Positions 2,058-61,947 of a stretch of DNA of 64,000 nt are shown in pieces. Position numbers and translations under genes: made by a program. The notes under the pieces were generated by a model that saw nothing but the letters and a program-made list of their open reading frames with translations, was not told where the DNA came from and did no database searches. Each line of letters opens with the position of its first letter. The first letter of the stretch is position 1. The stretch comes from a virus, in the IMG/VR virus record IMGVR_UViG_3300032047_000006, positions 17,441 through 81,440 of that record, one strand, 5' to 3'.

Positions 2058-2079
2058 CTATTTACAGATAACTATTTAT
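2058..2079 (+). promoter_or_regulatory. Tandem CTATTTAY motifs (candidate late promoter)
   Basis: CTATTTAC 2058-2065 and CTATTTAT 2072-2079, followed by GGAGG SD and ATG 2099. Confidence 0.65.
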
Positions 2080-2098
2080 GAACATGGAGGACATTTAA

Positions 2099-2863
2099 AT
2101 GTCAAAACAGAGAAGAATCAAAAAACTCGTTAAGGGGCACCTTAATTCTAAGGGTCCCGACGGCGTACAGATTTATACAACTGCTCAACAAAAGATTGAT
2201 CGTTTGGCAGTATTGGACGACATCGCTCAAACAAACGCAACGCAATTATTAGAAGCACTAACTGGTACTACTGGTGGAGATAACGATGGCATAGCATTCG
2301 CTGCTGACGCATTCCCATTCGACGCTCGTGAATCGGCTGACGCTGATAATGACGGCATCGGTGACAACCAAGAAATTGTGACAATGTATAAGGCTATTCA
2401 AGCCCTCGCAGCAGACGTTCTAGCCCTGGGCGCTCCAACTACCGCTGCCGCTGCCGCTGCGCTTACACAGCTAGGTATCATGGAAACTCAAGACAAAAAC
2501 AATGGTGATAATGACGAACTATATGATGGCGCAGAAGCCGCATACTTCGCTCAGAAATTAATTGTCGACACCAATAAAGCTACTTCTGATGCTAAGATAG
2601 TCGAGGCTGAAGCTTTACAAGCGGCGATAGAAGCACTTCCGCTTCCCGGTGCCAACGTTACAATCGAGGCACTCGGGGTGCGCTCGATTCATACTGCCGT
2701 CGGGGCGGCACCCGACAGTCTTGCTAAGACTGAAGTTGATCTACTAAAAACCAACGCAGCCGCCGTCGATACACAAGAAGCTCTATTTTCAGATCCCGGT
2801 GTCGCCGGTTACGAGACTCGCCGAGGTGTAACTGTGGATCCTAATGATGATACCCCTGCATAA
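2099..2863 (+). CDS. Ala/Asp-rich protein with a thrombospondin type-3-like Ca-binding repeat
   Basis: DNDGIAFAADAFPFDARESADADNDGIGDN matches the bacterial TSP3-like DAFP...DxDxDGIGDN pattern; strong SD. Confidence 0.7.
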   Translation: MSKQRRIKKLVKGHLNSKGPDGVQIYTTAQQKIDRLAVLDDIAQTNATQLLEALTGTTGGDNDGIAFAADAFPFDARESADADNDGIGDNQEIVTMYKAIQALAADVLALGAPTTAAAAAALTQLGIMETQDKNNGDNDELYDGAEAAYFAQKLIVDTNKATSDAKIVEAEALQAAIEALPLPGANVTIEALGVRSIHTAVGAAPDSLAKTEVDLLKTNAAAVDTQEALFSDPGVAGYETRRGVTVDPNDDTPA

Positions 2864-2874
2864 CAGAGGTTTAG

Positions 2875-3216
2875 TTGCATAACCCCATCCCACGAAAACC
2901 CTACTCGGTTTCAAAGAAATTAAAATCTGAAAACAAGATTAATGACAACTTTGAGATTCAGCTTTCTAGCCTGAGTCTCGAAGAAGTCATTGCTTTGAAA
3001 TTAGAAATCGCCACAAGAGAAACAAAAGGTAAGTTTTTTGGACTCCCTATCTGGCGCAGATTACCCCTGATCATCAAAGACGCCTGTTTAAAAGCTGCTG
3101 TTTCTGCAACCTACACCCGTAGAGAAGCGGCTAGATTCCTCGGAATCTCATATTCACAGATGAAGCTAAACCTTCGTAATTATGGCGTTTATAATTATTT
3201 TAAAAATAAACCTTAA
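2875..3216 (+). CDS. Fis-like helix-turn-helix DNA-binding protein
   Basis: C-terminal TRREAARFLGISYSQMKLNLRNY fits the Fis/NtrC HTH pattern; TTG start after AGAGG. Confidence 0.65.
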   Translation: MHNPIPRKPYSVSKKLKSENKINDNFEIQLSSLSLEEVIALKLEIATRETKGKFFGLPIWRRLPLIIKDACLKAAVSATYTRREAARFLGISYSQMKLNLRNYGVYNYFKNKP

Positions 3217-3369
3217 CAACAGAACTTTTCGCATATATATTAGTTAAGTCAGTTACTCACTTCGTTCATAACTTCTCTAAGATTACTTAATATAAAAAGC
3301 TCAAGTCTGAGTCTAAGTAAATAAAAAAGAATCCTACCTTAATGGAGTAGTCTATTTAGACTTCTTCTT

Positions 3370-3377
3370 CTATTTAC
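3370..3377 (+). promoter_or_regulatory. CTATTTAC motif (candidate late promoter)
   Basis: About 25 nt upstream of start 3402; a variant CTATTTAG lies at 3352-3359. Confidence 0.55.
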
Positions 3378-3401
3378 CTTTAGTAACGTGAGGGTAATAA
3401 A

Positions 3402-4505
3402 TTGGAAATAAGTAAAAATGTAAAGATTGGTATAACTGCTCAATCTGATGAAAATCTATTTGGTAATGGACTGAAACAAAATGTTTGGTTTCTTTACCGT
3501 CTTCTTAAAAATGTCGGATATGACATTCACTTAGTCTCAGAGTCTGATAAACATTATGGAAAGCATTTATTAGGTGTCCCAGTTGAAAGACTAGACACCG
3601 TCTCTATATTAGAGTATAAAGTAATTCTTCAGTGTGCCAATTCTTTGACGGAAACTTGCAGAAAGATACTCAGAGGGCATGGAGGCAAAGTTGGCTCTTG
3701 TGAATATGGAAATAAAGTTCTTATTGATATGGGCACAATGATATATGGTGGTCCAGGTGAGGACGGCTTCACTTTACCAGATGTTGATTTCTATTGGACA
3801 TCACCTCATTTTGCCAGAACTGCTAGTGCCTTATCAGCAATGTCAAAAGCACCAGTAAGTATTTGTCCTTATATATGGTCGCCAGAAGTTATAGTCCAGT
3901 CTTATATGAGAGCAGGCTACAATCCTTACTTCGGTGATCATGTTAATCTTAAAAATGTAGCCATCCTAGAATCTAATCTATACATCGTAAAGACATGTGT
4001 TATCCCAATGCTAATTTCAGAGAAATTATATAATGAGGATAACGAGATGATCGATAATGTCTTTAATGTAGGTGCAGCAAGATTGAAAGAAAAAAATAAC
4101 TTTGTTAGATTCTGTCAAAAGTTTGAGCTTGTAAAGGACAGTAAAATGTCTTTCGAGGGAAGGTGGGCTTTAAATTTCTTGTTACACAAAGGTTATGCTG
4201 GAACAATCGTTTCACATCAGTGGTGTAATGAATTAAATTACCTTCAGCTTGAAGCAATGTTTCTTAATCTTCCTTTTGTACATAATAGTCCTACATTCGA
4301 GGAGCATGGTTATTATTATCCAGACTTTGACGTAGACAAAGGAGCAGAGGCTCTTAAAGAAGCTATTAATGAACATCCAAAGCGTTACTTGGAAGAACGT
4401 CCAAAGAACGAAGAGATGATGTGGAGATACAACCCAAACAATAAAAAGAATGTAGACGGTTACATTGAATTATTAGAAGAGGTAATTCAGACAGACTATT
4501 CTTAG
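3402..4505 (+). CDS. DUF2827-like protein (putative GT-B glycosyltransferase-related)
   Basis: KIGIT...LFGNGLKQNVWFLYRLL, E-S-N..VKT..IPMLI.E and VSHQWCNELNYLQLEA...PFVHNS...GYYY match my recollection of DUF2827; TTG start. Confidence 0.7.
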   Translation: MEISKNVKIGITAQSDENLFGNGLKQNVWFLYRLLKNVGYDIHLVSESDKHYGKHLLGVPVERLDTVSILEYKVILQCANSLTETCRKILRGHGGKVGSCEYGNKVLIDMGTMIYGGPGEDGFTLPDVDFYWTSPHFARTASALSAMSKAPVSICPYIWSPEVIVQSYMRAGYNPYFGDHVNLKNVAILESNLYIVKTCVIPMLISEKLYNEDNEMIDNVFNVGAARLKEKNNFVRFCQKFELVKDSKMSFEGRWALNFLLHKGYAGTIVSHQWCNELNYLQLEAMFLNLPFVHNSPTFEEHGYYYPDFDVDKGAEALKEAINEHPKRYLEERPKNEEMMWRYNPNNKKNVDGYIELLEEVIQTDYS

Positions 4506-5032: not shown

Positions 5033-5899
5033 TTATTTCTTACCAAATGTGATTCCTTCACCTCTCTTGATGGCTGCAATGGCAGCGGATATTGCATCGC
5101 TTACTTGTTCTCTCGTAGCGCCATAACTTACAGCACTCATACACCCTGGATTAAATACCGGGCAGAATCTGGCATCTATGGAATGTATCATTCCTATTAA
5201 CTCCCCATTCATATTTAAAACAGGAGAACCACTTGAACCTGGAGCAGCAATAATTGTATACATAGAAAATGCCCTACCTTTTACTAACTCAACCTGTCCA
5301 GTATAAAATCCTTCTGTATAATATACTCCACCTCCACTTACGTTTCCTTGAAACACTCCTTTTGGAGCAGCAACATTTAATGTCTTCTGTCCATATTCTG
5401 GCTTTGAACCAAGGGTAAGGGCTTTCCCATTCATAGAGGTTTCTATTACGCAAGTATCAGCAGATATATTTTGTATCCAAGGTGGGTTTTTAACAGGGAA
5501 TGTCTCACCATAGGAATTCACAACTTCCATGCTACCTGTTGCCTTTAAAGTTACTTTATCTTTAAATTTGAGAGTCTCTCTAATATGAATCATCATCCTC
5601 GGATCAAAATCTGAAAATTTATATTCACCATCATCACAAACATGTTGAGCCGTCAGAACAAGAGTTCTAGGGTTTTTAATAAGCGCTTTTTTATTTAGTA
5701 CAATCGCTCCTGATCCAATAGAGTTCATGTCCATCAATTTTTTACACTGTTCAACGCCATCAATTTTCCCACAGACGTCTAGTTTAATGCTCTTTTTTAC
5801 CATTACAAAAGAATCTCTAATTGATGTCGGATGTTGTATATGTTTGGTACAGCCTCCAATTGTTATTAAAAATAAAAATAAAAATAATCTTTGAAACAT
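5033..5899 (-). CDS. Trypsin-like (S1) serine protease, predicted lipoprotein
   Basis: Catalytic motifs LTAQHVC, DTCVI and PGSSGSPV; hydrophobic N-terminus ending in the lipobox-like IGGC; GGAGG SD on the minus strand. Confidence 0.85.
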   Translation of the reverse strand: MFQRLFLFLFLITIGGCTKHIQHPTSIRDSFVMVKKSIKLDVCGKIDGVEQCKKLMDMNSIGSGAIVLNKKALIKNPRTLVLTAQHVCDDGEYKFSDFDPRMMIHIRETLKFKDKVTLKATGSMEVVNSYGETFPVKNPPWIQNISADTCVIETSMNGKALTLGSKPEYGQKTLNVAAPKGVFQGNVSGGGVYYTEGFYTGQVELVKGRAFSMYTIIAAPGSSGSPVLNMNGELIGMIHSIDARFCPVFNPGCMSAVSYGATREQVSDAISAAIAAIKRGEGITFGKK

Positions 5900-5935: not shown

Positions 5936-5943
5936 GTAAGTAG
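5936..5943 (-). promoter_or_regulatory. CTACTTAC motif (candidate late promoter, minus strand) overlapping the palindrome CTTACATATGTAAG
   Basis: gtaagtag on + is CTACTTAC on -, about 36 nt upstream of the protease start; perfect 14-bp palindrome at 5927-5940. Confidence 0.55.
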
Positions 5944-5970: not shown

Positions 5971-5978
5971 CTATTTAC
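5971..5978 (+). promoter_or_regulatory. CTATTTAC motif (candidate late promoter)
   Basis: About 20 nt upstream of the PhoH ATG, before an AAGGA SD. Confidence 0.6.
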
Positions 5979-5997: not shown

Positions 5998-7338
5998 ATG
6001 ACTAAGAAAATTTATGTTATCGACACTAGCGTTTATCTAACCGACTTCTCATCCCTCAAGGCATTTGAGGATAACGATGTTATCATACCATTCAAAGTCC
6101 TGGAAGAGATAGATAAGCATAAGAAACGCCAGGATTCCGTCGGCTCAAATGCAAGAAGTATTATTAGAACTCTCGACGAACTGAGACAACTAGGTTCTCT
6201 CCATGAAGGAGTTTCTATGGGTGAAGAATACGGAGTTGTCACAGCAAGAGGACATGATCCAGAACTACTCCCAGCAGATTGGGACAGGGAAGATCCAGAC
6301 AATCAAATCATCGCAACCGCACTCACTGTAAAGAAAGAAAATCCTGATTGCAAGGTAACTCTTGTTTCTCGGGATATTAATCTGAGAGTAAAATGTGATT
6401 CAATAGGATTATTAACGGACGATTATCAAGCATCTCAAGTAATAGAATCTTTAGACGAGATATATTCAGGATATCGAGATATAATTGTTTCCGATAGAAT
6501 GGTTGATGATTTTTATTTAGGAGTGGATACAATTCTGCCTGAGAGTGAGAATTCAGAAGAGCCCCCTATCAACGGTAATGAATGTGTTACTTTAATATCA
6601 GAGATAAGTGATAAAAAAACAGCCTTAGCTAGATTCAAAAATCATTCGACACCGCTCATAAAAATACCTACCAAGCGCAGAGTGTGGGGAATTAAACCAA
6701 GAAACAAAGAGCAATCATATGCGATAGATTTATTGATGGATCCTCAAGTATCGCTTGTAACTCTCGTTGGAAAAGCAGGCTCAGGAAAGACTCTCTGCGC
6801 CATCGCCGCAGGACTTGAGCAATCCGTAGATGATCACCACTTGAGTACACAGAGATCTATCTACACGAGGCTTATCGTCTCACGTCCCGTAGAACCGCTT
6901 GGTAAAGACATTGGATTCCTACCTGGAACAATGGAAGAGAAAATGGCACCCTGGCTTAAACCAATTCAAGATAATTTGAAATTTTTGATGATGGACGACG
7001 CTGTAACGCTACAGGAATATATGGAAATAGGCAAAATAGAGGTTGAAGCACTCACTTATATTAGAGGGCGCTCTATTGCTAATGCCTTTATTATTATTGA
7101 CGAAGCGCAGAACCTTACAAAGCACGAACTCAAAACTATTGTAACTCGTGTTGGCGAAGGAACAAAACTTGTCTTAACCGGCGACGTCGAACAAATTGAT
7201 AATATCTATATCGACGAAAGAACGAATGGGTTGACGTATGCTGTTGAAAAAATGAAATCACATGGAATTACAGGACATGTGACTCTAAAGAAGGGCGAGA
7301 GATCTGCCATCGCAACACTAGCGTCCAAGATATTATAA
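5998..7338 (+). CDS. phoH: PIN domain-PhoH ATPase fusion (PhoH2/YlaK-like)
   Basis: N-terminal PIN (YVIDTSV...EEIDKHK...DNQII...VSRDINLR); Walker A GKAGSGKT; GFLPG, RGRS, IIDEAQN, TRVGEG..LVLTGD..QID. Confidence 0.93.
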   Translation: MTKKIYVIDTSVYLTDFSSLKAFEDNDVIIPFKVLEEIDKHKKRQDSVGSNARSIIRTLDELRQLGSLHEGVSMGEEYGVVTARGHDPELLPADWDREDPDNQIIATALTVKKENPDCKVTLVSRDINLRVKCDSIGLLTDDYQASQVIESLDEIYSGYRDIIVSDRMVDDFYLGVDTILPESENSEEPPINGNECVTLISEISDKKTALARFKNHSTPLIKIPTKRRVWGIKPRNKEQSYAIDLLMDPQVSLVTLVGKAGSGKTLCAIAAGLEQSVDDHHLSTQRSIYTRLIVSRPVEPLGKDIGFLPGTMEEKMAPWLKPIQDNLKFLMMDDAVTLQEYMEIGKIEVEALTYIRGRSIANAFIIIDEAQNLTKHELKTIVTRVGEGTKLVLTGDVEQIDNIYIDERTNGLTYAVEKMKSHGITGHVTLKKGERSAIATLASKIL

Positions 7339-7339
7339 T

Positions 7340-7368
7340 TTTACATATTAGTAATAGTATGTTATTAT
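7340..7368 (+). promoter_or_regulatory. Sigma70-type promoter
   Basis: TTTACA-17 nt-TATTAT with an extended -10 TG, in the intergenic gap before 7396. Confidence 0.6.
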
Positions 7369-8720: not shown

Positions 8721-8749
8721 TTGACTAAACCTACTTTTTATGTCATAAT
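8721..8749 (+). promoter_or_regulatory. Sigma70-type promoter
   Basis: TTGACT-17 nt-CATAAT with an extended -10 TG, upstream of 8777. Confidence 0.7.
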
Positions 8750-8776: not shown

Positions 8777-9550
8777 ATGCAACACGTTTCATTTTCTGCT
8801 TTAAAGAATTGGAATCAATGCCCTTATTATTATAAGATAACTTATGTTGATAAGATAAAGAAGTTCGTGGGAAACCACTACACAGCTTTTGGAACAGCCC
8901 TTCACGAGGTTTGTGAAAAGCGCATTGAAGATGATTCAATAACAAACGAACCAGAAATGTTTGAGCTTGCATTCTTAAAAGAGTTGCAATCCCTTCCAGA
9001 AGAAGTTCGCTCAACTTTTAAAGCCAAAGACATTTCGGATATGAGAGAACAAGGTAAACGCCTATCAACAGTTGCTATCCCTGCTCTTCGTGAACACTTC
9101 GGTGAGTTCGAACTTGTCTCAACAGAAGAAGACATCTATGAGTCCATCGAGGGGTTCGAAGATTATAATTTTAAAGGCTTCATTGATTTAGTAATAAAAA
9201 CTCCCGACGGAAAAATCCATATCATTGACTGGAAGACTTGTTCGTGGGGCTGGAATATGCAACGAAAATCAGATCCAATGACAACTTATCAGCTTACATA
9301 TTATAAACATTATTATGCCCGAAAACACGGAGTCGAAATGAAAGACATCGAGACTCATTTTGGACTTCTTAAAAGAACAGCTAAAAACGATGCCGTGGAA
9401 ATTTTTAGAGTCACATCGGGAGCAAAAAAAGTAGATAATGCTATGAAGCTATTAAACAGAGCCCTCTACAATATTCAGAGTGGTAAATTCATAAAAAATA
9501 AATTATCTTGCAGTAAATGCGAATTCAAGAATACAGCAGAGTGTCCATAG
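8777..9550 (+). CDS. PD-(D/E)XK exonuclease, Cas4/RecB-like, probable Fe-S cluster
   Basis: SFS....QCP, FGTALH, E...GFIDLV...IIDWKT, QL..Y, and C-terminal CxxC...CP (1+3 Cys arrangement). Confidence 0.88.
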   Translation: MQHVSFSALKNWNQCPYYYKITYVDKIKKFVGNHYTAFGTALHEVCEKRIEDDSITNEPEMFELAFLKELQSLPEEVRSTFKAKDISDMREQGKRLSTVAIPALREHFGEFELVSTEEDIYESIEGFEDYNFKGFIDLVIKTPDGKIHIIDWKTCSWGWNMQRKSDPMTTYQLTYYKHYYARKHGVEMKDIETHFGLLKRTAKNDAVEIFRVTSGAKKVDNAMKLLNRALYNIQSGKFIKNKLSCSKCEFKNTAECP

Positions 9551-9558
9551 GAGAACAC

Positions 9559-10809
9559 ATGACAAAGAAAATAAAAATATTAACTCTCAGCGATCACCCA
9601 CTCTTTCATACTGGCGTAGCTATTCAGACAAAACTCTTTATAGAGGCAATGCTTAAAACTGACAAGTTTGAGTTTGTTTCACTAGCTGGAGCAGCAAGAC
9701 ATTCAGATATGTCACCAGTTAAGACTGAGCAGTACGGAGACAGTTGGAAAATATTCCCAGTAAATGGGTACGGAGATCCCGAAACGATGAGATCTGTGAT
9801 GCGTACTGAGCGCCCAGACATCGTCTGGCTGATGACAGATCCAAGATACTGGGATTGGTTGTGGGAAATAGAGGATGAGATAAGAGCCCAGGCACCTATG
9901 GTATATTATCACGTATGGGATAATCACCCTGCACCACATTACAATAAAAAATATTATGACTCTAATGATTTAGTTGTATCTATCTCTAAATTAACTGAAG
10001 ATGTGGTAAATGAGGTGGGAACTAAGGCTACTCATATCAGAATACCACATACCATTGATGCAAGTATTTATAAAATATTTCCAGAGAACGAGGTTCAGGA
10101 ATTTAAAAATGAGCACTTCGGAGCGGACTCTAAATTTTTATTCTTTTGGAATAATAGAAACGCACCTCGAAAAAATGTTACATCTCTATTATGGTGGTTT
10201 AAAGAATTTTTAGATGAAGTCGGTAACGAATCTGCTGCCCTTCTGATTCATACAGATCCTGAAGATCCAGCAGGCACAGACTTGGAAGCAAACTTGAATC
10301 AACTGGGCTTGAATGATGGACAAGTAATGTTATCCCCTTTGAAATACCCAGCAGACAGAATGGCAATGCTTTATAATATTGCTGACTGCACAATTAATAT
10401 TTCTGATGCAGAAGGATTTGGACTCTCAACATTGGAATCACTCGCCTGCGGAACTCCAATAATTGTTAATAATACAGGTGGATTGCAAGAACAAGTGTCT
10501 GACGGCACAAATAAATTCGGAGTTGCTATTGAACCAGCCACTAGGACAATAATTGGCTCACACAAGGTTCCATATATTTATCAAGATCGTGTCGCTAAGA
10601 AAGATTTTGTTGCTGCTTTAAAAGAAATGTATAATTTGTCCGAAGAGGATAGAGTCCGCATGGGGCAACTCGGATATAACCACGTTGTCAAAAATTATAA
10701 TAGTGCTACTTTTTCAAAGAAATGGGAAGAAGCTTTAATAAAACTTAATAAAGAATTAGGCTCGTGGAAGAGTCGTAAGCACCAGAACTGGGAGATTGTT
10801 GAACTATGA
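9559..10809 (+). CDS. Glycosyltransferase family 4 (GT-B)
   Basis: NRNAPRK and EGFGLSTLESLACGTPII...TGGLQEQV; AGGAG SD favours ATG 9559 over 9517. Confidence 0.9.
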   Translation: MTKKIKILTLSDHPLFHTGVAIQTKLFIEAMLKTDKFEFVSLAGAARHSDMSPVKTEQYGDSWKIFPVNGYGDPETMRSVMRTERPDIVWLMTDPRYWDWLWEIEDEIRAQAPMVYYHVWDNHPAPHYNKKYYDSNDLVVSISKLTEDVVNEVGTKATHIRIPHTIDASIYKIFPENEVQEFKNEHFGADSKFLFFWNNRNAPRKNVTSLLWWFKEFLDEVGNESAALLIHTDPEDPAGTDLEANLNQLGLNDGQVMLSPLKYPADRMAMLYNIADCTINISDAEGFGLSTLESLACGTPIIVNNTGGLQEQVSDGTNKFGVAIEPATRTIIGSHKVPYIYQDRVAKKDFVAALKEMYNLSEEDRVRMGQLGYNHVVKNYNSATFSKKWEEALIKLNKELGSWKSRKHQNWEIVEL

Positions 10810-15100: not shown

Positions 15101-15112
15101 CAGGAATTAAAA

Positions 15113-16015: not shown

Positions 16016-16019
16016 TTTA

Positions 16020-48922: not shown

Positions 48923-48947
48923 CTTATCATTTCTATTCTGTTATTGT
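48919..48947 (+). promoter_or_regulatory. Sigma70-type promoter upstream of primase
   Basis: TTGACT-17 nt-TATTGT with an extended -10 TG. Confidence 0.55.
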
Positions 48948-53122: not shown

Positions 53123-53148
53123 CTATTTACTCTAACTGGCGAAAGCCA
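53123..53148 (+). promoter_or_regulatory. CTATTTAC motif followed by a GAAA-tetraloop hairpin
   Basis: Motif at 53123-53130; TGGC-GAAA-GCCA at 53137-53148; GGAGG at 53151. Confidence 0.6.
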
Positions 53149-53160: not shown

Positions 53161-53352
53161 ATGATGACACAATTAAAAGCATTTATGGACACCCACGTTG
53201 AAAGGTTTATTTCACGCAAGTTTCTTGCTTGGTTAACAGCCTCGGGCTTGGCTCTTTACGGAGTTCTATCATCAGGTGACTGGACACAGCTTACAATGGT
53301 TTACATTGGTTCACAAGCAGCAGTTGATCTTGTGAAGCAATTAAAGGGATGA
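53161..53352 (+). CDS. Small two-helix membrane protein, holin-like
   Basis: SRKF followed by two short hydrophobic helices; 63 aa; strong SD. Confidence 0.55.
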   Translation: MMTQLKAFMDTHVERFISRKFLAWLTASGLALYGVLSSGDWTQLTMVYIGSQAAVDLVKQLKG

Positions 53353-53714
53353 TAAAATTCTGGACATGGCTCAAAGCCAACTGGTGGGTTCCCTTCGCCT
53401 CTGTTGTCGTTATTATCAGCTACTTCGCTGGTAACAGCGGCAAGCAGGGTTTGAAGGACATGCTCCAAGCTCAACGTGACGACTACGAGACTCAACTCAA
53501 AGTCCTACGAGAACAACGAGAGAAAGAAAAAAAGATTTTAGAAAACTATAAAAAAAGCTTGCAACTTCTCCAAGAAAGATATAAAGTAAAAGAAAAAGAA
53601 ATAAAGAAAGCTAACCGAGCAGAACTCAAGAAAACTATTGAGGAAAACGAAGATAAGCCAGTAGAAGAGATTGCTGACGACTTCGCAAAACGTTTCGGTT
53701 TAGAAAAGGTGTAA
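53349..53714 (+). CDS. Membrane-anchored coiled-coil protein, i-spanin-like
   Basis: N-terminal TM (WWVPFASVVVIISYFAG) plus charged coiled coil; ATGA overlap with the holin-like gene. Confidence 0.5.
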   Translation: MIKFWTWLKANWWVPFASVVVIISYFAGNSGKQGLKDMLQAQRDDYETQLKVLREQREKEKKILENYKKSLQLLQERYKVKEKEIKKANRAELKKTIEENEDKPVEEIADDFAKRFGLEKV

Positions 53715-53715
53715 C

Positions 53716-54141
53716 TTGAAACTATTATCTATTTTGCTAACTATTTCCTTGACTTTCCTACCAACCTATGCTATAAGTCAGGAACTAAACATAACAGGGC
53801 TGAATAAGGGCGAGGAAGCCCCCTTCACGGGCATTTTGCTAACAAAAGCAGCACTCGCCAAGATTGAGGCTGACTTGCGCTTAAACGTCCAATTATGCGA
53901 GAATAATTGTAAACTGAAATTAGACGAAAAGGAACTTCTCTACAACAAAGATGTTTCTATTTTAAAAGCAGAGATAGACGGAATAAACCAGTTCGTCCAA
54001 GTCAAGAATAAAAGAATCAATAGGCTGGAAGAAATCATTGACGAGAGTAACAACTCTTGGTTTGTTCCAGTTGTTGCTATTGCTTCTTTTGCACTCGGCG
54101 TTGCTACAACTGTTGGAATAACTTATGCGGTGAATAAATGA
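53716..54141 (+). CDS. Exported coiled-coil protein with C-terminal TM (spanin-like)
   Basis: Signal peptide MKLLSILLTISLTFLPTYA, coiled coil, C-terminal hydrophobic helix; TTG start. Confidence 0.55.
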   Translation: MKLLSILLTISLTFLPTYAISQELNITGLNKGEEAPFTGILLTKAALAKIEADLRLNVQLCENNCKLKLDEKELLYNKDVSILKAEIDGINQFVQVKNKRINRLEEIIDESNNSWFVPVVAIASFALGVATTVGITYAVNK

Positions 54142-54530
54142 GTAAAGATAAAGATTGGAATCTTGTAGCCAAGATTGAACAAAAGATAAAAGAGAAATAT
54201 GGCGAAGAAGCCATCAAGTCACCAGCCCAAGGTTGGACAGATGAGCAGGAAGAAGAACATTTAGAAAAGCTCAAAATTGCTGCTACAAAGTCTAGAGAAG
54301 CATCTGATAAGAAAGAGAAAGTAGAAATAGCCGAAGGCGTTTTTGTCACAAAGAAACTACTTATGAAGGGTAGCAATAGAACTTGTCCCGTTTGCGGCGT
54401 TTACTCGTTCAACAAACAGGACGATGTTTACATGAGCAAGTTCCAATGTTGCTTTAAATGTTATATAGATTATGTCGAAAACCGTGAAGACAGATGGAAG
54501 TCTGGCTGGCGTCCAAACAAGGAGAAATAA
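54138..54530 (+). CDS. Hypothetical zinc-finger protein
   Basis: CPVC...CCFKC. Confidence 0.75.
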   Translation: MSKDKDWNLVAKIEQKIKEKYGEEAIKSPAQGWTDEQEEEHLEKLKIAATKSREASDKKEKVEIAEGVFVTKKLLMKGSNRTCPVCGVYSFNKQDDVYMSKFQCCFKCYIDYVENREDRWKSGWRPNKEK

Positions 54531-54531
54531 G

Positions 54532-55065
54532 ATGGCTGATGTATTAGAAATCGTTCAGGGAATCTCGCAAGTAATGGCGAACACCTACGATGGCGCTGTT
54601 GATGAAAACGGCGAACCAATCAAAATTGGTTTGAAGCGAGAAGAAGATGTAGCGATTACTGATAAAAGAGTCATGGATGGCTTTAAGATCGCAATGGCTG
54701 GTGATACACTCTTTATTAAGTATCACGGTGAAGTTACAATGAAGGAAGCAAAGGCAAGTGGCTTCGAATCAGAAATGGAGCAAATGATTGCAGACATTTC
54801 TTCTTTCCTCAAGAAAGAATATAAAAAGGTTACAGGCTCTGCCCTCACCTTAAAGAAGTCAGGCGAGATGGACGCTATCGTTCAGACAGTCGGCGCTCAC
54901 AGATGCTGGGTTCAGGCAACTTGCCCTTACACAATTACTTCATTCGGTGAATCAGTTGTTGCAGTTGGTGAACCTTCCGTTGATAATGTCGACGACGCAA
55001 TCAAGAAATGGCTTGAACTTGGAAGAAAAGGCAAAGCCCCTAACGATAAAAGGAAGGACGGATAA
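54532..55065 (+). CDS. Hypothetical protein (head module)
   Basis: AAGGAG SD before ATG 54532. Confidence 0.75.
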   Translation: MADVLEIVQGISQVMANTYDGAVDENGEPIKIGLKREEDVAITDKRVMDGFKIAMAGDTLFIKYHGEVTMKEAKASGFESEMEQMIADISSFLKKEYKKVTGSALTLKKSGEMDAIVQTVGAHRCWVQATCPYTITSFGESVVAVGEPSVDNVDDAIKKWLELGRKGKAPNDKRKDG

Positions 55066-55274
55066 TGAAGATTTCAAAGGGAAGATTAAAAGAAATCATT
55101 CAAGAAGAAGTTCGACTTCACCAGAATGAAAACATTCAGGAATCCGCCGAAGAACAAATCGAGATGATTCTCAACGATCTTTTCGATAATGGCGTTTCCA
55201 ACGAGGGACTCAAATCATTATTGCTCAAAGTCATCGAAAACATCGATGCAGGTTTCGTAGGCGAACCATCATAA
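55065..55274 (+). CDS. Small protein with MKISKGRLKEIIQEE leader (possible head-internal protein)
   Basis: 69 aa; TAATG coupling to the upstream gene. Confidence 0.7.
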   Translation: MKISKGRLKEIIQEEVRLHQNENIQESAEEQIEMILNDLFDNGVSNEGLKSLLLKVIENIDAGFVGEPS

Positions 55275-55291
55275 AGAAAGCACAGGCTTGA

Positions 55292-56869
55292 ATGTCTTAT
55301 CAACTCACCAAGAAAAAAATCCTATCTGAAATCGTCCAATGCGGCAAAGATCCCGTTTACTTTCTAAACAACTATGCAAAGATTTCACACCCAATGCACG
55401 GGTCTATCCCGTTTAGGACTTACGACTTCCAAGATGAGCTTTTAAGAGACTTCAACGATCATCGCTTCAATGTTATCTTAAAAGCACGTCAGTTGGGCAT
55501 CTCAACCGTAACAGCAGGTTATGTTGTTTGGATGATGCTTTTCCACAAAGATAAAAATGTTCTTGTTATGGCTACAAAGTTCGGCACAGCAGCCAACTTG
55601 GTAAAGAAGGTAAAAGCGATAATGAGAAACGTTCCAGAGTGGATGCGAATAGCGAACATCTCTGTGGACAATAGAACTTCTTTCGAGTTATCTAATGGTT
55701 CACAAATCAAAGCAACATCTACCTCATCTGACGCTGGTCGTTCAGAAGCATTATCTCTTCTTGTAATAGACGAAGCGGCACACGTTGAAGGCTTGTCTGA
55801 ATTGTGGACTGGTTTATATCCCACATTGTCTACTGGTGGTAGGTGTATCGCCCTGTCCACGCCTAATGGTGTCGGAAACTGGTTTCACCAAACCTATATA
55901 GATGCCGAAGAATCCAATAACGATTTTCACCCTACCTGTCTTCCATGGGATGTCCACCCAGACAGAGATCAAGACTGGTTCGATAAAGAGACGAGAAATA
56001 TGTCTCGTAGGCAAATCGCACAAGAGTTAGAGTGTAACTTCAATATGTCTGGTGAAACGGTTATTAACACCGAGGACATAGAAAGAATAATGAACGCCGT
56101 ATCGTCACCCTCCCACAAAGCAGGGTTTGATAGAAATTATTATATTTGGGAAGACTTCAACCCAGAGCACTCTTACCTTCTTGTAGCCGACGTCGCCCGT
56201 GGAGACGGTAAGGACTTTTCAGCATTTCAAGTCATAAATGTTACAGAGATGTCCCAAGCAGCAGAATACCAGGGTAAGGTGGATCTAGACACCTATGCTA
56301 TGTTTCTGTCTGACATCGGCAAGTCTTATGGAAATTGTTTACTTGTTGTGGAGAATAATAACGTCGGCTACGCAGTGTTGACTAAGTTGGAAGAGATGGC
56401 ATATCCAAATCTTTATTATTCTATAAAAGCCACACATGAGTACATTGATTCGTCTTCTGCTAGATCTAACAGCAGAGCCGTCCTTGGCTTTACGACATCA
56501 ATGAAAACAAGACCACTAATAATCGCTAAGTTAGAAGAATTTATAAGAAATGATCTAGTTAGCATTGTATCGAATCGTCTTTACAATGAATTAAAGACTT
56601 TTGTTTGGAATAACGGAAAGCCCGAGGCAATGAGAGGTTACAATGATGATCTTGTGATGTCTATGGCGATCGCCTGTTGGGTAAGAGACACTGCTTTGGT
56701 TTTAAATCAGCGAGACGCTGAATATAACAAAGCTCTTCTTGGAGCCATGACTACTTCCAAAACAAAACTTAACACAGCGATATCAGGTATGGTAAACTAT
56801 GGGGAACCTAATGGGGTTCAACAAATGAAAGAAATAATGACCAACTTCCCTGGTCTTTTTAAGGGGTAA
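55292..56869 (+). CDS. terL: Terminase large subunit (T4 gp17-like)
   Basis: LKARQLGIST, LVIDEAA, STPNG, QELEC.F, ADVARGDGKD, VENN, NDDLVM. Confidence 0.95.
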   Translation: MSYQLTKKKILSEIVQCGKDPVYFLNNYAKISHPMHGSIPFRTYDFQDELLRDFNDHRFNVILKARQLGISTVTAGYVVWMMLFHKDKNVLVMATKFGTAANLVKKVKAIMRNVPEWMRIANISVDNRTSFELSNGSQIKATSTSSDAGRSEALSLLVIDEAAHVEGLSELWTGLYPTLSTGGRCIALSTPNGVGNWFHQTYIDAEESNNDFHPTCLPWDVHPDRDQDWFDKETRNMSRRQIAQELECNFNMSGETVINTEDIERIMNAVSSPSHKAGFDRNYYIWEDFNPEHSYLLVADVARGDGKDFSAFQVINVTEMSQAAEYQGKVDLDTYAMFLSDIGKSYGNCLLVVENNNVGYAVLTKLEEMAYPNLYYSIKATHEYIDSSSARSNSRAVLGFTTSMKTRPLIIAKLEEFIRNDLVSIVSNRLYNELKTFVWNNGKPEAMRGYNDDLVMSMAIACWVRDTALVLNQRDAEYNKALLGAMTTSKTKLNTAISGMVNYGEPNGVQQMKEIMTNFPGLFKG

Positions 56870-56874
56870 AATAG

Positions 56875-58776
56875 ATGGCAGACGGCAATATCAAAAACGA
56901 AGAATCAGTACTTTTCAAAAGGCTCACGAGATTGTTCTCAGGACCGATTGTAAATAGGCGACAGCAAAACAGAAGAAAGTTCAAGAGACAGGCATTAGAC
57001 AACTACGCCACTCGTTTCACTTCTGCTTCTGGCAAACAATTCCAAAAGAATCAATACAACCCATTCGAGCAAATAAACTCAGATGCGATGAACAACAGGG
57101 TTCGCAACGAGCGATATGTTGATTTTGATCAGATGGAGTTCGAGCCTATTATCGCATCTTCATTAGACATTTATGCGGACGAGATGACTTATCACAACGA
57201 ACTCAACAACATGATAAACATCGAGTGTCCAAACCAAGAGATTAAGTCTACACTAGAATCTCTTTATAACAACGTTCTAAACGTCGACTTCAACCTTTAT
57301 GGCTGGTGCCGCACAATGTGTAAATATGGAGACTACTTTCTTTATGTTGACATTGACGATAAGATCGGCGTCAAATCATTCATACCGCTTCCTCCTCAAG
57401 AAGTCGAGAGAATGGAGGGCGAAGATCCAACCAACCCTAATTATGTTCAATATCAATGGAATTCTGCTGGGCTTACTTTTGAGAACTGGCAGGTAGCACA
57501 CTTCCGAATTTTAGGCAATGATAAGTATGCCCCTTATGGAACTTCTATTTTAGAACCAGCACGACGCATCTGGCGACAGCTTCATCTTATCGAAGATGCG
57601 ATGATGTCTTATAGAATCACACGCTCACCAGAACGAAGAGTTTTCTATGTTGACGTTGGTAATATCTCTCCTCAAGACGTAGAGCAGTATATGCAAAAAG
57701 TCGTAACAACTATGAAGAAGAATCAAGTTGTTGACGCAAACACTGGACGTGTTGATCTTCGCTACAACCCGCTTTCTATTGACGAAGATTATTTTATTCC
57801 TGTCCGTGGCGGCGAGAGCACAAAGATTGAGTCTCTTCCAGGTGGAACCTACACAGGCGACATCGACGACGTAAAATATTTGAGAGATAAACTCTTTGCA
57901 GCCCTCAAGATCCCTCAGTCTTATCTCTCTCGTTCAGAGGGAGCAGACGAAGACAAAGCAACACTCGCACAAAAAGACATCCGCTTTGCAAGAACTATTC
58001 AAAGGCTTCAACGCTCCGTTATCGCCGAGCTAGAAAAGGTTGGAATTATTCACCTTTACACTCTCGGTTATCGTGGCGAGGACTTGACTAAATTTGGCTT
58101 GAGGCTAAATAATCCTTCACAGATTGCGGCAATGCAGGAATTAGAGCATCTACGTGCCAAGTTTGAAATAGCTTCGGCTGCAACTGAGGGCTACTTTTCA
58201 AAAGCCTGGATTTATAGAAACATTTTTAGAATCACAGAAGAAGAGATCGTTAGAGTGGAAAGGGAGATGTTCCACGATTCCAAGTTCGCAGCAGCAATTG
58301 AAGCAGCAGGCGAAGCGCCAGCCGACGCTGAAGGCGGCGGCGGAGGGTTAGATATGGGTGACGATGAAGGCGGAGACGATTTAGATCTTGATACCGGCGC
58401 AGATGACGCAGGAGGCGATGAGCCAGAATCAGCACTCTTGGCAGCACCAGGTAAGAGAGACGGATACCTCACTCCCGGCGCTAAAGGAAAAGTGTATCAT
58501 CCCGAAAAGGTTGACTCCCGTCCACAAGGCGCTAGGAAAAGATCAACAAAATCTAAGTGGTCAGATGAAACAGCTTCATTCACCCCAAGAAACACCATGC
58601 CCGGCATGTCGGACTTGAAAACACTTTCCCGAGGCATTTATGAGGGTAATGAAACTACTTACACTGACGAAGAAGAAAAATTGCTTCTTGAAGTGAATCA
58701 GGAGCTAACAGATTGGCAAGTTCAGTCGTTAGTAAAAGATCTCGAAAAGAAGAAGAATAAGCAATTAAAAGGATAA
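56875..58776 (+). CDS. Portal protein (T4 gp20-like)
   Basis: SILEPARRIWRQL.LIEDAMMSYRITRSPERRVFYVDVGN, EDYFIPVRG, IESLPGG, DVKY...KLFAALKIP. Confidence 0.95.
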   Translation: MADGNIKNEESVLFKRLTRLFSGPIVNRRQQNRRKFKRQALDNYATRFTSASGKQFQKNQYNPFEQINSDAMNNRVRNERYVDFDQMEFEPIIASSLDIYADEMTYHNELNNMINIECPNQEIKSTLESLYNNVLNVDFNLYGWCRTMCKYGDYFLYVDIDDKIGVKSFIPLPPQEVERMEGEDPTNPNYVQYQWNSAGLTFENWQVAHFRILGNDKYAPYGTSILEPARRIWRQLHLIEDAMMSYRITRSPERRVFYVDVGNISPQDVEQYMQKVVTTMKKNQVVDANTGRVDLRYNPLSIDEDYFIPVRGGESTKIESLPGGTYTGDIDDVKYLRDKLFAALKIPQSYLSRSEGADEDKATLAQKDIRFARTIQRLQRSVIAELEKVGIIHLYTLGYRGEDLTKFGLRLNNPSQIAAMQELEHLRAKFEIASAATEGYFSKAWIYRNIFRITEEEIVRVEREMFHDSKFAAAIEAAGEAPADAEGGGGGLDMGDDEGGDDLDLDTGADDAGGDEPESALLAAPGKRDGYLTPGAKGKVYHPEKVDSRPQGARKRSTKSKWSDETASFTPRNTMPGMSDLKTLSRGIYEGNETTYTDEEEKLLLEVNQELTDWQVQSLVKDLEKKKNKQLKG

Positions 58777-58784
58777 CAGTATAA

Positions 58785-59615
58785 ATGAAGTTTAAGCATA
58801 ATAAAAAGAGAAACACAGCCTTCCTTTTCGAGGCACTCATAAAGGAGATGGCAAAGTCTGTAGTAGCTAGTGATTCTAATCGACAAACAAAGATAGCTAG
58901 AATCATCAAAAGGCACTTCACGAAACGTGGAGTTCTTTATAAGGACTTACAATCTTATAAGGTTCTTATGGAGTTGAAAGAAGCTGAGTCGGACTTTGCA
59001 AAGAGAATCATCTCAGAAGTTCGCAGGGATAGGGATAGACTAAATACACAGGTTGTCTTCTCGGAGCAGTCCAAGTTGATTAAAAAAATTAACGTTGAAT
59101 TGGGACAAGAAGTTTACTCCAACTTTGTTCCAAACTACAAGACTATGGCTACTATCGGACAGTTGTTCGCCGACAACGTTTCTCCTAACGAGAAAGTTAT
59201 TCTTGAGGACAAGCTTCTTACAGAGATGACGAAGGCAGAAGAAAAGACTGAAAAAGAGATTTTAGAGCACCTTGACTCCATCGCTTATAAGACTTTTACA
59301 AACAAGTTCAATAAAGCTTATGCTGGCAAGCTTCATGAAGAGCAACAACAGATAGTTTCACGATACATCTATTCCGTGTCAGACAATGGAATGTCCCTAA
59401 AATCCTACTTGAATGAAGAAGTTAAGAGACTGAAAGAGAAGGTTCAAGAGTCGCTCGAATTGAAAGAGATAACTGAAGATCCTAACATGACAGAGAAGAC
59501 GGAAGAAGTTTTAAGATTCTTGGAAGAATTAAAGGAGACTAAACTCGACGAGACTGTCATAAAGAAGATTATGCAAATACAGGCGCTAATACGGGAGATT
59601 GAATCAAATGGCTGA
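58785..59615 (+). CDS. Hypothetical helical protein (head assembly module)
   Basis: 276 aa between portal and prohead protease. Confidence 0.75.
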   Translation: MKFKHNKKRNTAFLFEALIKEMAKSVVASDSNRQTKIARIIKRHFTKRGVLYKDLQSYKVLMELKEAESDFAKRIISEVRRDRDRLNTQVVFSEQSKLIKKINVELGQEVYSNFVPNYKTMATIGQLFADNVSPNEKVILEDKLLTEMTKAEEKTEKEILEHLDSIAYKTFTNKFNKAYAGKLHEEQQQIVSRYIYSVSDNGMSLKSYLNEEVKRLKEKVQESLELKEITEDPNMTEKTEEVLRFLEELKETKLDETVIKKIMQIQALIREIESNG

Positions 59616-60153
59616 AGAAATAAAGGTTCAGATTGGAAGCACCCCACCACCAGAAAACTCTGTAGAAAATAGTGCCAAAGTCAATATGATACTGCGGAAG
59701 ACACTAGCAGGAGAATATGCAATATATGATCACTTTGACATTGATATTCTCGTGAGTCCTGAAAAGAAGCAGATTCTCTCATTTCCAAAAGAGGACATGT
59801 CCGATGATGTCTACGCAGCGCAAGACAGAATGTTTGAGTTCCTCGGCAAGAAGGGTGTCATTACTAGGGAGTCAGTCCAGTCTGGCAATATTTACGGTTC
59901 AATGCAGGCAGGCTTTCCAGATTCTTCTAATGGCGCTGATCCAGTTCAGGTTGTATTGTACACTCTCGGCAGATTCATTGAGGAAGAAAAGCCATACTAC
60001 TCTCACCAATCAGCACTTGAAGATGAGATAACAAAGCATGAAACTTCCCCAGAAACATCTGACTCCACAGAGCTAGGCGAAGTTCCTCACGAAAAATCGA
60101 AAGGAACGGTAGAAAAGTTCCCAGCGATAAAATCTTATTACAGGGTTTATTAA
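59608..60153 (+). CDS. Hypothetical protein
   Basis: GGGAG SD before ATG 59608. Confidence 0.75.
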   Translation: MAEEIKVQIGSTPPPENSVENSAKVNMILRKTLAGEYAIYDHFDIDILVSPEKKQILSFPKEDMSDDVYAAQDRMFEFLGKKGVITRESVQSGNIYGSMQAGFPDSSNGADPVQVVLYTLGRFIEEEKPYYSHQSALEDEITKHETSPETSDSTELGEVPHEKSKGTVEKFPAIKSYYRVY

Positions 60154-60164
60154 AGGAACGAGAG

Positions 60165-60461
60165 TTGACAAATTTAATCTACTTCATCCTCGCCACCTCC
60201 GGCATTACTCAGATATTAGTTTACGGCAAGATCTTCGATAATATTCGCCCCATCAACGGATGGTTTGGGAAACTCTTCTCTTGCACTATGTGCATGGGCT
60301 TCTGGGCAGGTGTATTTTTATGGAGCGTAAACACATACACCACACTATTTAGTTTTGATTATAGTCCTCTGACTGGCTTCCTTCTTGGTTGCCTAAGTTC
60401 TGGTACTTGTTATATTTTTGATATGATAGTCGGAGACAAGGGGCTAAGAATAGAAAGATAG
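60165..60461 (+). CDS. DUF1360-like membrane protein
   Basis: Three hydrophobic segments and GKLFSCTMCMGFWAG (CxxC..W). Confidence 0.7.
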   Translation: MTNLIYFILATSGITQILVYGKIFDNIRPINGWFGKLFSCTMCMGFWAGVFLWSVNTYTTLFSFDYSPLTGFLLGCLSSGTCYIFDMIVGDKGLRIER

Positions 60462-60472
60462 AGAGGTTTAAG

Positions 60473-60571
60473 ATGACAAATAAGAGATGGATGTTACAGC
60501 CAGTTCGCAACTGTTGCAAAGGTAGCATATTCACGCAGGGCGAGCCTGCGTTTTATTATTTATGGAGTTAA
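60473..60571 (+). CDS. Small 32 aa ORF (MTNKRWMLQPVRNCCKGSIFTQGEPAFYYLWS)
   Basis: GAGAGG SD 6 nt before the ATG; exactly fills the gap before the protease gene; absent from the ORF track. Confidence 0.5.
   Translation: MTNKRWMLQPVRNCCKGSIFTQGEPAFYYLWS
60533..60560 (+). terminator. Intrinsic terminator-like hairpin
   Basis: ACGCAGG-GCGAG-CCTGCGT followed by TTTATTATT. Confidence 0.5.
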
Positions 60572-60574
60572 AAG

Positions 60575-61189
60575 ATGAGCAATAAAGTTCTGCTAAGAGA
60601 ATATTATGAGCTTTGCGAAGGAGGAGTCTGTCAGGATTTCTTAACCGAAAGTGAAAAGAGGGAAGTCGCCGAAGGAAAGGTGATGTATCTCACAGGCATT
60701 ATCCAGAGAGCAAAAGCAAAAAACCAAAATGGTAGAGTCTACCCAAGAGAAGTCTTGGAGAGAGAAGTAGAGAACTATCAAAAAGTGGTAAGAGAGAAAA
60801 GAGCCCTTGGTGAATTAGATCACCCAGAAGACTCTGTTGTAAACTTGAAGAACGTTTCACACCTTATGACTCAAATTTGGTGGGAAGGCGACAACGTAAT
60901 GGGGAAGTGTAAAATCCTCAACACACCTTCAGGGCAGATTCTCCAATCTCTTGTTCAGTCAAACGTTACACTCGGCATTTCCTCAAGAGGAATGGGTTCG
61001 GTTCACGAGGATAGACAGGGCAACACTATTGTTGAAGATGACTTCAACCTTATCTGCTTTGACTTTGTTTCAGATCCTTCTACTATCGGAGCTTTTATGT
61101 CTTTAGCCGAGGGCAAGATTAAAACAACAAACGTCTACACTAAGGCAGACAAGATTAACAGATTACTAAACGACATCGTAAGGGACTAA
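60575..61189 (+). CDS. Prohead core protease (T4 gp21-like)
   Basis: KNQNGRVYP, ALGELDHP, NVSH, TPSG, GISSRGMGS, DFVSDPS. Confidence 0.95.
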   Translation: MSNKVLLREYYELCEGGVCQDFLTESEKREVAEGKVMYLTGIIQRAKAKNQNGRVYPREVLEREVENYQKVVREKRALGELDHPEDSVVNLKNVSHLMTQIWWEGDNVMGKCKILNTPSGQILQSLVQSNVTLGISSRGMGSVHEDRQGNTIVEDDFNLICFDFVSDPSTIGAFMSLAEGKIKTTNVYTKADKINRLLNDIVRD

Positions 61190-61191
61190 AA

Positions 61192-61644
61192 TTGAAGAAA
61201 TCAGAACTAAAGAATATTATCAAGCCTATCGTAGAGGAATGTGTGAAAGACGCACTCTTATCAAGTGGCTTATTGTCTAAAGTTATTTCAGAAGTTATTG
61301 CTGGCGTCCAAGGCGGACTTATGACTGAGACTCGCCAAGTAGCACCTGTCCAACATCAGGAGAAGCCAGCCCCACAACAAACGAATCAAATGAGTCAAGC
61401 CGAAAAAGAAAAGATTTTAGAAAATAAAAAGAAACTTCTTGATGCTATTGGCTCTTCATCTTATAACGGCGTTGACGTATTCGAGGGAACCAAGCCATTA
61501 AGAAAAGGTGGTTCAGCCTCTAAAAGCTCTGGCGGTTACAAGGCATTTGACGGAGTAGATCCTAGTGATCCAGGCGTAAACATCGATGGGCTCACAAGCA
61601 GTCTTGGCAATGTCTGGAAGAAACTAGCAGAAGGCAAAAAGTAA
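61192..61644 (+). CDS. Hypothetical protein with MKKSELKNIIK leader (possible scaffold/core protein)
   Basis: 150 aa directly after the protease; TTG start. Confidence 0.72.
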   Translation: MKKSELKNIIKPIVEECVKDALLSSGLLSKVISEVIAGVQGGLMTETRQVAPVQHQEKPAPQQTNQMSQAEKEKILENKKKLLDAIGSSSYNGVDVFEGTKPLRKGGSASKSSGGYKAFDGVDPSDPGVNIDGLTSSLGNVWKKLAEGKK

Positions 61645-61675
61645 AAACCAAAACACTTTACACGAAAGGAATAAA

Positions 61676-61939
61676 ATGAGAGATAAAGGAAAAGGTTTAT
61701 TTGAAGAAAGAATTAGAAGCGGAGAGTCAACGGAAGCATTCGTAAGACGAGCCCTTCGTAAGTTGAAGAAGGAGGGTATCATGAACGACATCAGAGATCC
61801 TTCTCGTGGCACGCCTCTTTGTAGAAACGTGCCAAAGAAATCACTTCGCAAGAAGCATAAGAAAATCGAGGCAGAACGCCGTAGATTTGCTGATGAGGCT
61901 CGCAAGCGAAAACGACAACGACAAAACCAAAATAGATAA
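61676..61939 (+). CDS. rpsU: Divergent ribosomal protein bS21 homolog
   Basis: IRSGESTEAFVRRALRKLKKEGIMNDIR...KKSLRKKHKKIEAERRR aligns by eye with bS21 ([28 protein letters not shown]...KPTTERKR); head-module location is typical of phage bS21. Confidence 0.65.
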   Translation: MRDKGKGLFEERIRSGESTEAFVRRALRKLKKEGIMNDIRDPSRGTPLCRNVPKKSLRKKHKKIEAERRRFADEARKRKRQRQNQNR

Positions 61940-61947
61940 CTATTTAT
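61940..61947 (+). promoter_or_regulatory. CTATTTAT motif (candidate late promoter)
   Basis: About 28 nt upstream of ATG 61976. Confidence 0.6.

Follow-up and report, generated by a model that had tools for sequence, protein, structure and literature searches.

A CTA[A/C/T]TTA box as the probable -10-type promoter element of a distant T4 relative, with a phage-encoded sigma factor as its candidate reader

Late transcription in bacteriophage T4 is directed by promoters that carry TATAAATA at positions -13 to -6, which is read by gp55 together with gp33 and the gp45 sliding clamp (PMC7892883; PMC1524935). gp55 comprises a sigma-R2 domain, a helix-loop-helix and a clamp-binding tail, and the mechanism of gp55, gp33 and gp45 has been solved (PMC7892883). 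The late promoter of phage Aeh1, CTAAATA, begins at -12 and is found with a diverged gp55 (PMC1524935). In this work, a box of the sequence CTA[A/C/T]TTA was analysed in a 64,000-nucleotide stretch of viral DNA, referred to below as the window, which comprises bases 17441-81440 of the 81.4-kb IMG/VR virus contig IMGVR_UViG_3300032047_000006. In a class of phage promoters, the box is probably the only element, of the -10 type, and its probable reader is a sigma factor which the phage itself encodes at 12674-13432.

An earlier note on this DNA had listed ten plus-strand copies of the octamer CTA(A/T/C)TTA(C/T) and one minus-strand copy at 5936-5943. All of these were present where they had been placed. 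The end of the octamer and the start codon are 19-33 nucleotides (nt) apart in the plus-strand cases, and before the minus-strand gene this distance is 36 nt. A further copy at 3352 (CTATTTAG) had been overlooked. The core CTA[ACT]TTA held as the motif, and the restriction of the eighth base to C or T turned out to be a weak preference, with T in 54% of 87 distinct sites. The boxes, and two of the genes which they precede, are as follows (aa, amino acids).

2058-2064, plus strand: CTATTTA box, upstream member of a tandem pair before gene 2099-2863 (254 aa); predicted +1 at about 2070
2072-2078, plus strand: CTATTTA box, 20 nt before the ATG at 2099; predicted +1 at about 2084
3352-3358, plus strand: CTATTTA box with G as the eighth base, in tandem with 3370, 18 nt apart
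3370-3376, plus strand: CTATTTA box before the DUF2827 gene 3402-4505
5937-5943, minus strand: CTACTTA box before the only minus-strand gene, 5033-5899, a trypsin-like peptidase
5971-5977, plus strand: CTATTTA box before the PIN-PhoH gene 5998-7338
22093-22099, plus strand: CTAATTA box before the gp25-like gene
22122-22520, plus strand: gp25-like baseplate wedge gene
22517-22523, plus strand: CTAATTA box overlapping the stop codon of 22122-22520, before the gp6-like gene
22545-24383, plus strand: gp6-like baseplate wedge gene
42123-42129, plus strand: CTATTTA box before the 769-aa gene 42161-44470
44507-44513, plus strand: CTAATTA box before the 323-aa gene 44535-45506
53123-53129, plus strand: CTATTTA box directly 3' of a stop codon, heading the block 53161-61644
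61940-61946, plus strand: CTATTTA box directly 3' of a stop codon, before gene 61976-62773 (265 aa)

The box thus precedes the baseplate wedge genes, genes of the tail region and the block 53161-61644, which holds small genes and those of the terminase large subunit, portal and prohead protease. Gene 61976-62773 occupies the position of a scaffold gene, upstream of the gene most strongly covered by RNA (63292-).

When CTAHTTAY (H, not G; Y, C or T) was counted over the whole window, the result looked weak, with 25 matches against 15.8±4.0 in shuffles. The signal resides in the placement of the box and not in this count. Across the whole contig, 16 of the 28 plus-strand octamers were located in the 4.4% of the sequence that is intergenic. 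An unbiased k-mer scan of the contig gave CTATTTA as the top intergenic 7-mer (11 intergenic and 10 coding copies, 0.86 expected, p=1e-10); the second signal was CTTGACT, the -35 box of ordinary promoters. In the 3.6 kb of intergenic DNA of the 81-kb contig, CTA[ACT]TTA was found 19 times in the sense and once in the antisense orientation, against 2.0±1.3 copies expected from a first-order Markov model of the contig's own AT-rich intergenic DNA. The lone antisense copy precedes the only minus-strand gene. Enrichment over the AT-rich background, a check which the earlier note had suggested and which was run on the contig and its relatives, was therefore observed, and the motif follows gene orientation as that note had described.

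The specificity of the box was determined with related loci, of which at least 591 were recovered from IMG/VR with the sigma protein and 80, from ocean viruses and with 59-88% sigma identity, were kept. CTAATTA (38 times the expectation) and CTATTTA (31 times) were the top upstream 7-mers in the 80 loci. In these loci and the contig, about 21% of the CTA[ACT]TTA copies on either strand were located 10-60 nt before a Shine-Dalgarno sequence and start codon. The same placement was seen for 0.3-3.6% of the copies of control words, which were CTAGTTA, single-base variants at positions 1, 2, 3, 5, 6 and 7, the reverse, the reverse complement and the T4 consensus TATAAATA, the last being at background with 3.6%. 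As every one-base variant was at background, all six fixed bases of the box matter, and the fourth position can be described as 'not G'.

The box is also conserved at orthologous sites. The complete 191-kb relative G002 has a sigma factor that is 62% identical and most of its genes on the other strand; 58 copies of the box were on its gene strand and 9 on the opposite one, and its intergenic copies were 21 in the sense and 2 in the antisense orientation. The strand of the box therefore tracks the gene strand in two genomes of opposite polarity. In G002, boxes precede the orthologues of PhoH, the gp6-like wedge protein and the 323-aa (44535) and 63-aa (53161) proteins. The box at the PhoH site is kept in both G002 and phage immuto, and that of the gp25-like gene is kept in several relatives with unalignable flanks. 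For the 323-aa gene, 30 orthologues (43-59% protein identity) were gathered by searching the genomes of known relatives. One or two boxes at no more than 90 nt from the start were kept in 29 of the 30 orthologous gaps, the surrounding bases being unalignable; by chance, a box would be expected in about 1 of 20 such gaps.

The nearest cultured relatives, Flavobacterium phage vB_FspM_immuto and the cyanobacterial Microcystis phage Mel-JY01, encode homologous sigma factors (28% and 26% identical, respectively), and the gene order around sigma is the same as here. In both phages, [A/C]TATTTAT boxes are found before virion genes and PhoH, with the first base mostly A where it is C in the window. 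The most enriched intergenic words of immuto were TATTTAT(A), ATATTTA and CTATTTAT, and its boxes are placed, frequently just behind a terminator, in front of the genes for sheath, tube, hub, terminase, portal and PhoH and of other virion genes. In Mel-JY01, ATATTTAT(A) was present in nearly every gap of the structural region that was examined. The genes of immuto lack Shine-Dalgarno sequences, whereas the window phage has strong Shine-Dalgarno sites. The same box, with A or C as its first base, is thus in use in phages that infect hosts of separate phyla, which differ in their housekeeping promoters; this favours a reader encoded by the phage over a host sigma factor.

No conserved -35 element was found up to 50 nt upstream of the 87 distinct sites, as the earlier note had already remarked. 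The information is confined to the 7-mer, apart from a weak A/T-rich tract 12-17 nt upstream. Where a Shine-Dalgarno sequence is present, the distance between the box and the start codon is 15-54 nt. In the relatives, 34 of 505 boxes had the ATG of a long open reading frame (ORF) 1-12 nt downstream, compared with 0.6-2.6% for control words. These close ATGs are mostly 4-8 nt (mode 5) after the box and lack a Shine-Dalgarno sequence; many of them belong to one orthologous gene just after the sigma gene and are not independent events. In such cases, a second promoter element could not be accommodated between box and message. If the A of these ATGs is the first transcribed base, the spacing of 4-8 nt would put the box at about -12 to -6, which is its most likely register. 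At sites led by a Shine-Dalgarno sequence, purines are enriched 6-7 nt after the box. A box directly after an intrinsic terminator was seen once on the contig (position 13194) and at 5 of the 87 sites, compared with 5 of 713 control gaps; this arrangement is common in immuto and Mel-JY01.

Two other identities of the box were tried and rejected. A -35 element is not compatible with a box that can be 4-20 nt from the start codon. The Bacteroidetes -7 box, TAnnTTTG, is not enriched in the intergenic DNA of immuto, where 1 of its 72 copies was located, and is also disfavoured by the strong Shine-Dalgarno sites which the window phage uses.

Three gaps had been said to carry sigma70-type promoters and to lack the box, and this was found to be correct.

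7340-7368, plus strand: sigma70-type promoter, TTTACA-17-TATTAT with TG; gap without a box
8721-8749, plus strand: sigma70-type promoter, TTGACT-17-CATAAT with TG; heads the gap-free gene string 8777-22064
48919-48947, plus strand: sigma70-type promoter, TTGACT-17-TATTGT; before the primase and SbcD-SbcC fusion genes

The sigma gene is located within the string headed by the promoter at 8721. Sigma70-type promoters are carried by the nuclease, glycosyltransferase, sigma, primase and SbcCD blocks, and the two kinds of promoter are almost mutually exclusive.

The candidate reader is encoded by the only sigma-like gene that was found.

12674-13432, plus strand: phage sigma factor, candidate reader of the box; 252 aa, sigma-2 domain at about 19-118, C-terminal helical domain at about 145-235

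Its classification as gp55-like was retained for the N-terminal domain, which groups with T4 gp55, and had to be qualified for the whole protein, which is not a plain gp55 and has a predicted extra C-terminal domain, putatively sigma-4-like. The protein matched the profile phrog_234 ('late sigma transcription factor') with E=1.3e-6 over profile positions 47-156 of 181; T4 gp55 is the archetype of this family (E=2.9e-69). With Pfam, there was no match to the protein at threshold, and its orthologues touched Sigma70_r2 at E=0.003-0.005. A weak phmmer alignment with RpoS region 2 in the PDB covered the FD..G....Y.....W.I signature, and in a language-model search the protein adjoined viral and extracytoplasmic function (ECF) sigma clusters. 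An AlphaFold model (mean predicted local distance difference test score, pLDDT, 74.5) gave no Foldseek match at E<=0.001. In a search independent of Foldseek, the top of 48,161 PDB chains was gp55 (7d7d_F; Z 10.5, root-mean-square deviation 2.8 Å, 96 residues, 18% identity), tied with the sigma-2 domain of SigB (Z 10.3), and sigma-2 domains aligned to the model at 2.6-3.0 Å. The product of this ORF is thus predicted, from profile and model comparisons, to be a sigma factor with a gp55-like region 2. Residues 145-235 of the model resemble sigma C-terminal domains (3mzy, Z 7.7; 2h27, sigma-E region 4 on -35 DNA, Z 5.6), with scores that are middling for a helical domain, so that their sigma-4-like nature is taken as a lead only.

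Five complete relatives were used for searches of gene content, and each has one copy of this sigma gene. In these genomes, neither a T7-like RNA polymerase nor a beta-subunit domain of a multisubunit RNA polymerase was detected at the sensitivity of Pfam. Pfam Sigma70_r4_2 gave nothing convincing, and neither did the search for a gp45-type or beta-type clamp with Pfam models and the T4 gp45 protein, the reach of which is limited and leaves absence unproven. One of the five (L094; G001:C1:106174-106368) has a second, ordinary sigma factor in a 339-aa frame (Sigma70_r2, E=1.4e-13), which the other four lack.

A conserved small gene is always next to the sigma gene.

13404-13721, plus strand: conserved protein of about 100 aa with an acidic C-terminal tail

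In the window phage this gene overlaps the 3' end of the sigma gene. In many relatives, the sigma-adjacent gene has a box 4-8 nt before an ATG that lacks a Shine-Dalgarno sequence. The invariant core of the protein, ...KY.E.LQRSNEQ.VK..., was also seen in L043:10709-10999 and 11 other loci. Searches showed no resemblance to T4 gp33 and assigned it to no Pfam or PHROG family; it may be a sigma partner, a co-activator or an anti-sigma factor.

Under the reading preferred here, the phage sigma factor would redirect the core RNA polymerase of the host to the boxes, and transcription would start about 6 nt after the last A of the box. Besides 2070 and 2084, the starts predicted in this way are near 3364, 3382, 5983, 22105, 22529, 42135, 44519, 53135 and 61952 on the plus strand and near 5931 on the minus strand. 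As the sigma gene sits in the string headed by the sigma70-type promoter at 8721, a two-step cascade can be proposed. The host sigma factor would express the nucleases, glycosyltransferases, replication genes and phage sigma, and the phage sigma would then express the baseplate, tail, head and packaging genes together with PhoH, DUF2827 and the peptidase. The functions of the boxed genes suggest late timing. The gp55-like N-terminal domain would read the box as melted non-template DNA, and the sigma-4-like domain would probably hold the beta-flap tip, where T4 uses gp33 and the gp45 clamp. A wider proposal, which we consider possible although doubtful, is that far-T4 myoviruses of aquatic habitats, a very large clade with more than 8,000 homologues of the sigma factor in metagenomes, have replaced gp55, gp33 and gp45 by a gp55-type sigma-2 domain fused to a sigma-4-like flap-binding module. 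Late transcription in this clade would be clamp-free, would need one promoter element and would be uncoupled from replication, with leaderless late mRNAs in many members and the box used across host phyla.

Several observations weigh against the box being read in this way. Sense-strand copies inside genes are at chance (14 observed, about 15-17 expected on the contig), and avoidance of such copies was tested in the coding DNA of the contig and in G002 and was not found; therefore, either specificity depends on more than the seven bases or a genome with its genes on one strand simply tolerates sense promoters inside them. Genes that are not structural are boxed as well, namely those of PhoH, DUF2827 and the trypsin-like peptidase. 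A sigma-4-like domain is predicted, yet no -35 partner motif was found. Direct comparison with T4 gp55 was weak (hhalign E=0.09), and a phmmer search with the sigma protein against the PDB gave no gp55 hit. The contig is also incomplete, being roughly 43% of a genome since the complete IMG/VR relatives have 184-191 kb. The RNA data, which consist of assembled contigs from six marine metatranscriptome runs that represent relatives at 90-95% identity and cover about 10% of the sampled words, show neither starts nor strands, and uncovered stretches such as 50.7-52.7 kb are not evidence. In one study, three RNA contigs start at 44535-44537, 16-18 nt 3' of the +1 predicted at 44519; one from another study aligns from 44520, with 27 unlike letters before it. 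The highest summed RNA depth was found for gene 63292-, probably the major capsid protein by its position, which has a leader of 184 nt (63108-63291) without a box. Taken together, the RNA evidence neither confirms nor refutes the promoter model.

Two further observations touch on these points. In the leader of gene 63292-, the RNA contigs from relatives begin at 63210, just 3' of a small GAGAGG/CCTCT hairpin, and one of them bears an adapter remnant; 63210 may be a processing site or a different promoter. Antisense copies inside genes are below expectation (10 against 18-31 in G002 and 10 against 13-21 in the contig), which could result from selection against antisense promoters.

The pattern could also be explained without the phage sigma factor. 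If the box were bound by another phage activator or appropriator, or by an alternative sigma factor of the host, ORF 12674-13432 would read something else. Such an explanation would be suited by the purely correlative pairing of sigma and box, by the lack of a -35 motif to match the C-terminal domain, by the incompleteness of the contig and by the second, ordinary Sigma70_r2 protein of one relative. However, the leaderless spacing of 4-8 nt means that the box itself must be a -10-type element, four of the five complete relatives have only this one sigma-like gene, and the hosts of phages with the same box differ in phylum and housekeeping promoters, so we give another reader a small chance. 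It is improbable, too, that the box acts in RNA, as a cleavage or processing site or as a stabilising 5' element on long polycistronic transcripts, in which case processed messages would begin near each gene. A sense-only, intergenic and conserved pattern would be equally expected for such a signal, AU-rich words are typical targets of endonucleases, and an RNA contig of one relative reads through a box near 61927. An RNA signal does not fit well, however, with boxes that recur directly after intrinsic terminators, with a distance to the start codon that varies from 4 to about 55 nt, with sense copies that are not avoided inside genes, or with a dedicated phage sigma factor for which no other recurrent motif was found.

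If the box had no function and simply reflected the AT-rich composition of intergenic DNA, or the context of stop codons and spacers, this would agree with the marginal count over the whole window and with the two boxes that abut or contain stop codons. Such an origin is scarcely credible: the intergenic composition model expects 2 copies where 19 were seen, every one-base variant is at background, the strand follows the genes in two genomes of opposite polarity and 29 of 30 orthologous gaps keep the box. The one-base variants, the intergenic Markov model and the orthologous gaps refute it for practical purposes.

Tandem pairs of boxes are frequent. They were found at 2058/2072 and 3352/3370 and in the related loci L100, L105, L107, L108, L110, L118, L122 and L126, most of them in the gap that corresponds to the one ahead of the 323-aa gene. 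The boxes of 10 of the 22 pairs are 17-18 nt apart from start to start, with unconserved spacers, and a pair may be two promoters or one site of two parts. Among single copies, the CTATTTA at 15958-15964 is inside the 3' end of gene 15113-16015, 55 nt before a 2014-aa ORF (16020) that has no other box, and may be an intragenic promoter. The box at contig position 11003 (L001) is followed by AAGGAG and an unlisted, K/R-rich ORF of 58 aa from 11031, a small gene of the kind overlooked by simple ORF lists. At 60534-60550 there is a GC-rich hairpin with a T-run, and TTATTTAT comes next, at 60556, 11 nt ahead of the ATG of the protease gene. This word differs from the box in one base, having T where the box has C at position 1, and the order of terminator then box is that seen in immuto and Mel-JY01.

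Nearly all genes of the window are on the plus strand (the minus strand has only 5033-5899), with strong GGAGG-type ribosome-binding sites and short gaps. The genes recognised include those of the terminase large subunit, T4 gp20-like portal, prohead protease, PIN-PhoH protein, PD-(D/E)XK nuclease, two GT4 glycosyltransferases, primase and RuvC-like resolvase, and two giant lectin/SH3-bearing proteins of 2014 aa and 3841 aa. The 3841-aa ORF (25789-37314), located between baseplate and tail genes, has Laminin_G_3 (concanavalin-like lectin) domains, and its product probably serves as a giant fibre or adhesin; a search of it revealed no polymerase domain. The 1066-aa ORF 49922-53122 is a fusion of an SbcD-like phosphoesterase (Metallophos) and an SbcC/SMC-like ATPase, functions which in T4 belong to separate proteins, gp47 and gp46. 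A megablast search with a 16-kb query gave no DNA-level match to cultured phages. By protein, immuto and Mel-JY01 are closest, followed by Rhodothermus phage RM378, and on these relationships the phage, which is marine and uncultured, is placed far out in the T4 superfamily. The protein database contains at least 8,000 homologues of the sigma factor, mostly from ocean metagenomes.

For ocean phages of this abundant and almost entirely uncultured group, the results supply a promoter consensus that can be tested and a candidate for its reader. Literature searches found no published promoter description for CTATTTA, ATATTTAT, immuto or Mel-JY01. With this consensus, sequence alone could suffice to recognise late genes, among them those of unannotated virion proteins and auxiliary ones such as PhoH, and to delimit transcription units in metagenomic contigs; metatranscriptome signals could be assigned to stages of infection. 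Direct tests of the idea are possible with the two relatives in culture, immuto (Flavobacterium) and Mel-JY01 (Microcystis).

Compared with known systems, the box most resembles the late promoters of T4-like phages. The earlier note had likened it to the reverse complement of the T4 box; the better interpretation is that it varies on the T4 and Aeh1 boxes in the same register, sharing T at -11, A at -10, T at -7 and A at -6 with T4 and C at -12 with Aeh1. In T4, as here, a single AT-rich -10-type element of 7-8 bp without a -35 element is found before virion genes; four to five of seven positions are shared, and the box here differs in C at -12, T at -8 and a free -9. The reader in T4 is gp55, which lacks region 4, whereas the putative reader here has a sigma-2 domain that is structurally closest to gp55 and an added, putatively sigma-4-like domain. 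T4 uses gp33 and gp45, and no gp33, gp45 or other clamp was found in the five complete relatives; immuto is annotated with family A polymerases. ECF (group 4) sigma factors, SigB and SigH combine a sigma-2 domain with a C-terminal three-helix domain, as is predicted here, and full-length structural alignments to SigB, sigma-E and sigma-32 reached Z 8-10. However, region 4 of those factors reads a -35 element that they require, and the promoters here show none. The Aeh1 box shares C at -12 followed by TA..TA, and CTAATTA is one base from CTAAATA, with T at -8 here. Aeh1 is a true T4-like phage with gp33 and gp45, whereas the phages described here are only distantly related to T4, and its example indicates that the box can drift together with gp55.

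The box is therefore most likely a sequence variant of the T4-type late promoter, and both this promoter type and its drift were already known. The differences from T4 are the sequence of the box, the predicted two-domain sigma factor, a clamp and a gp33 that are apparently lacking, and how widely the system is distributed. With the same gp55-type domain, another box, an added domain and no detectable clamp, the comparison with T4 bears on how promoters with only a -10 element are activated.

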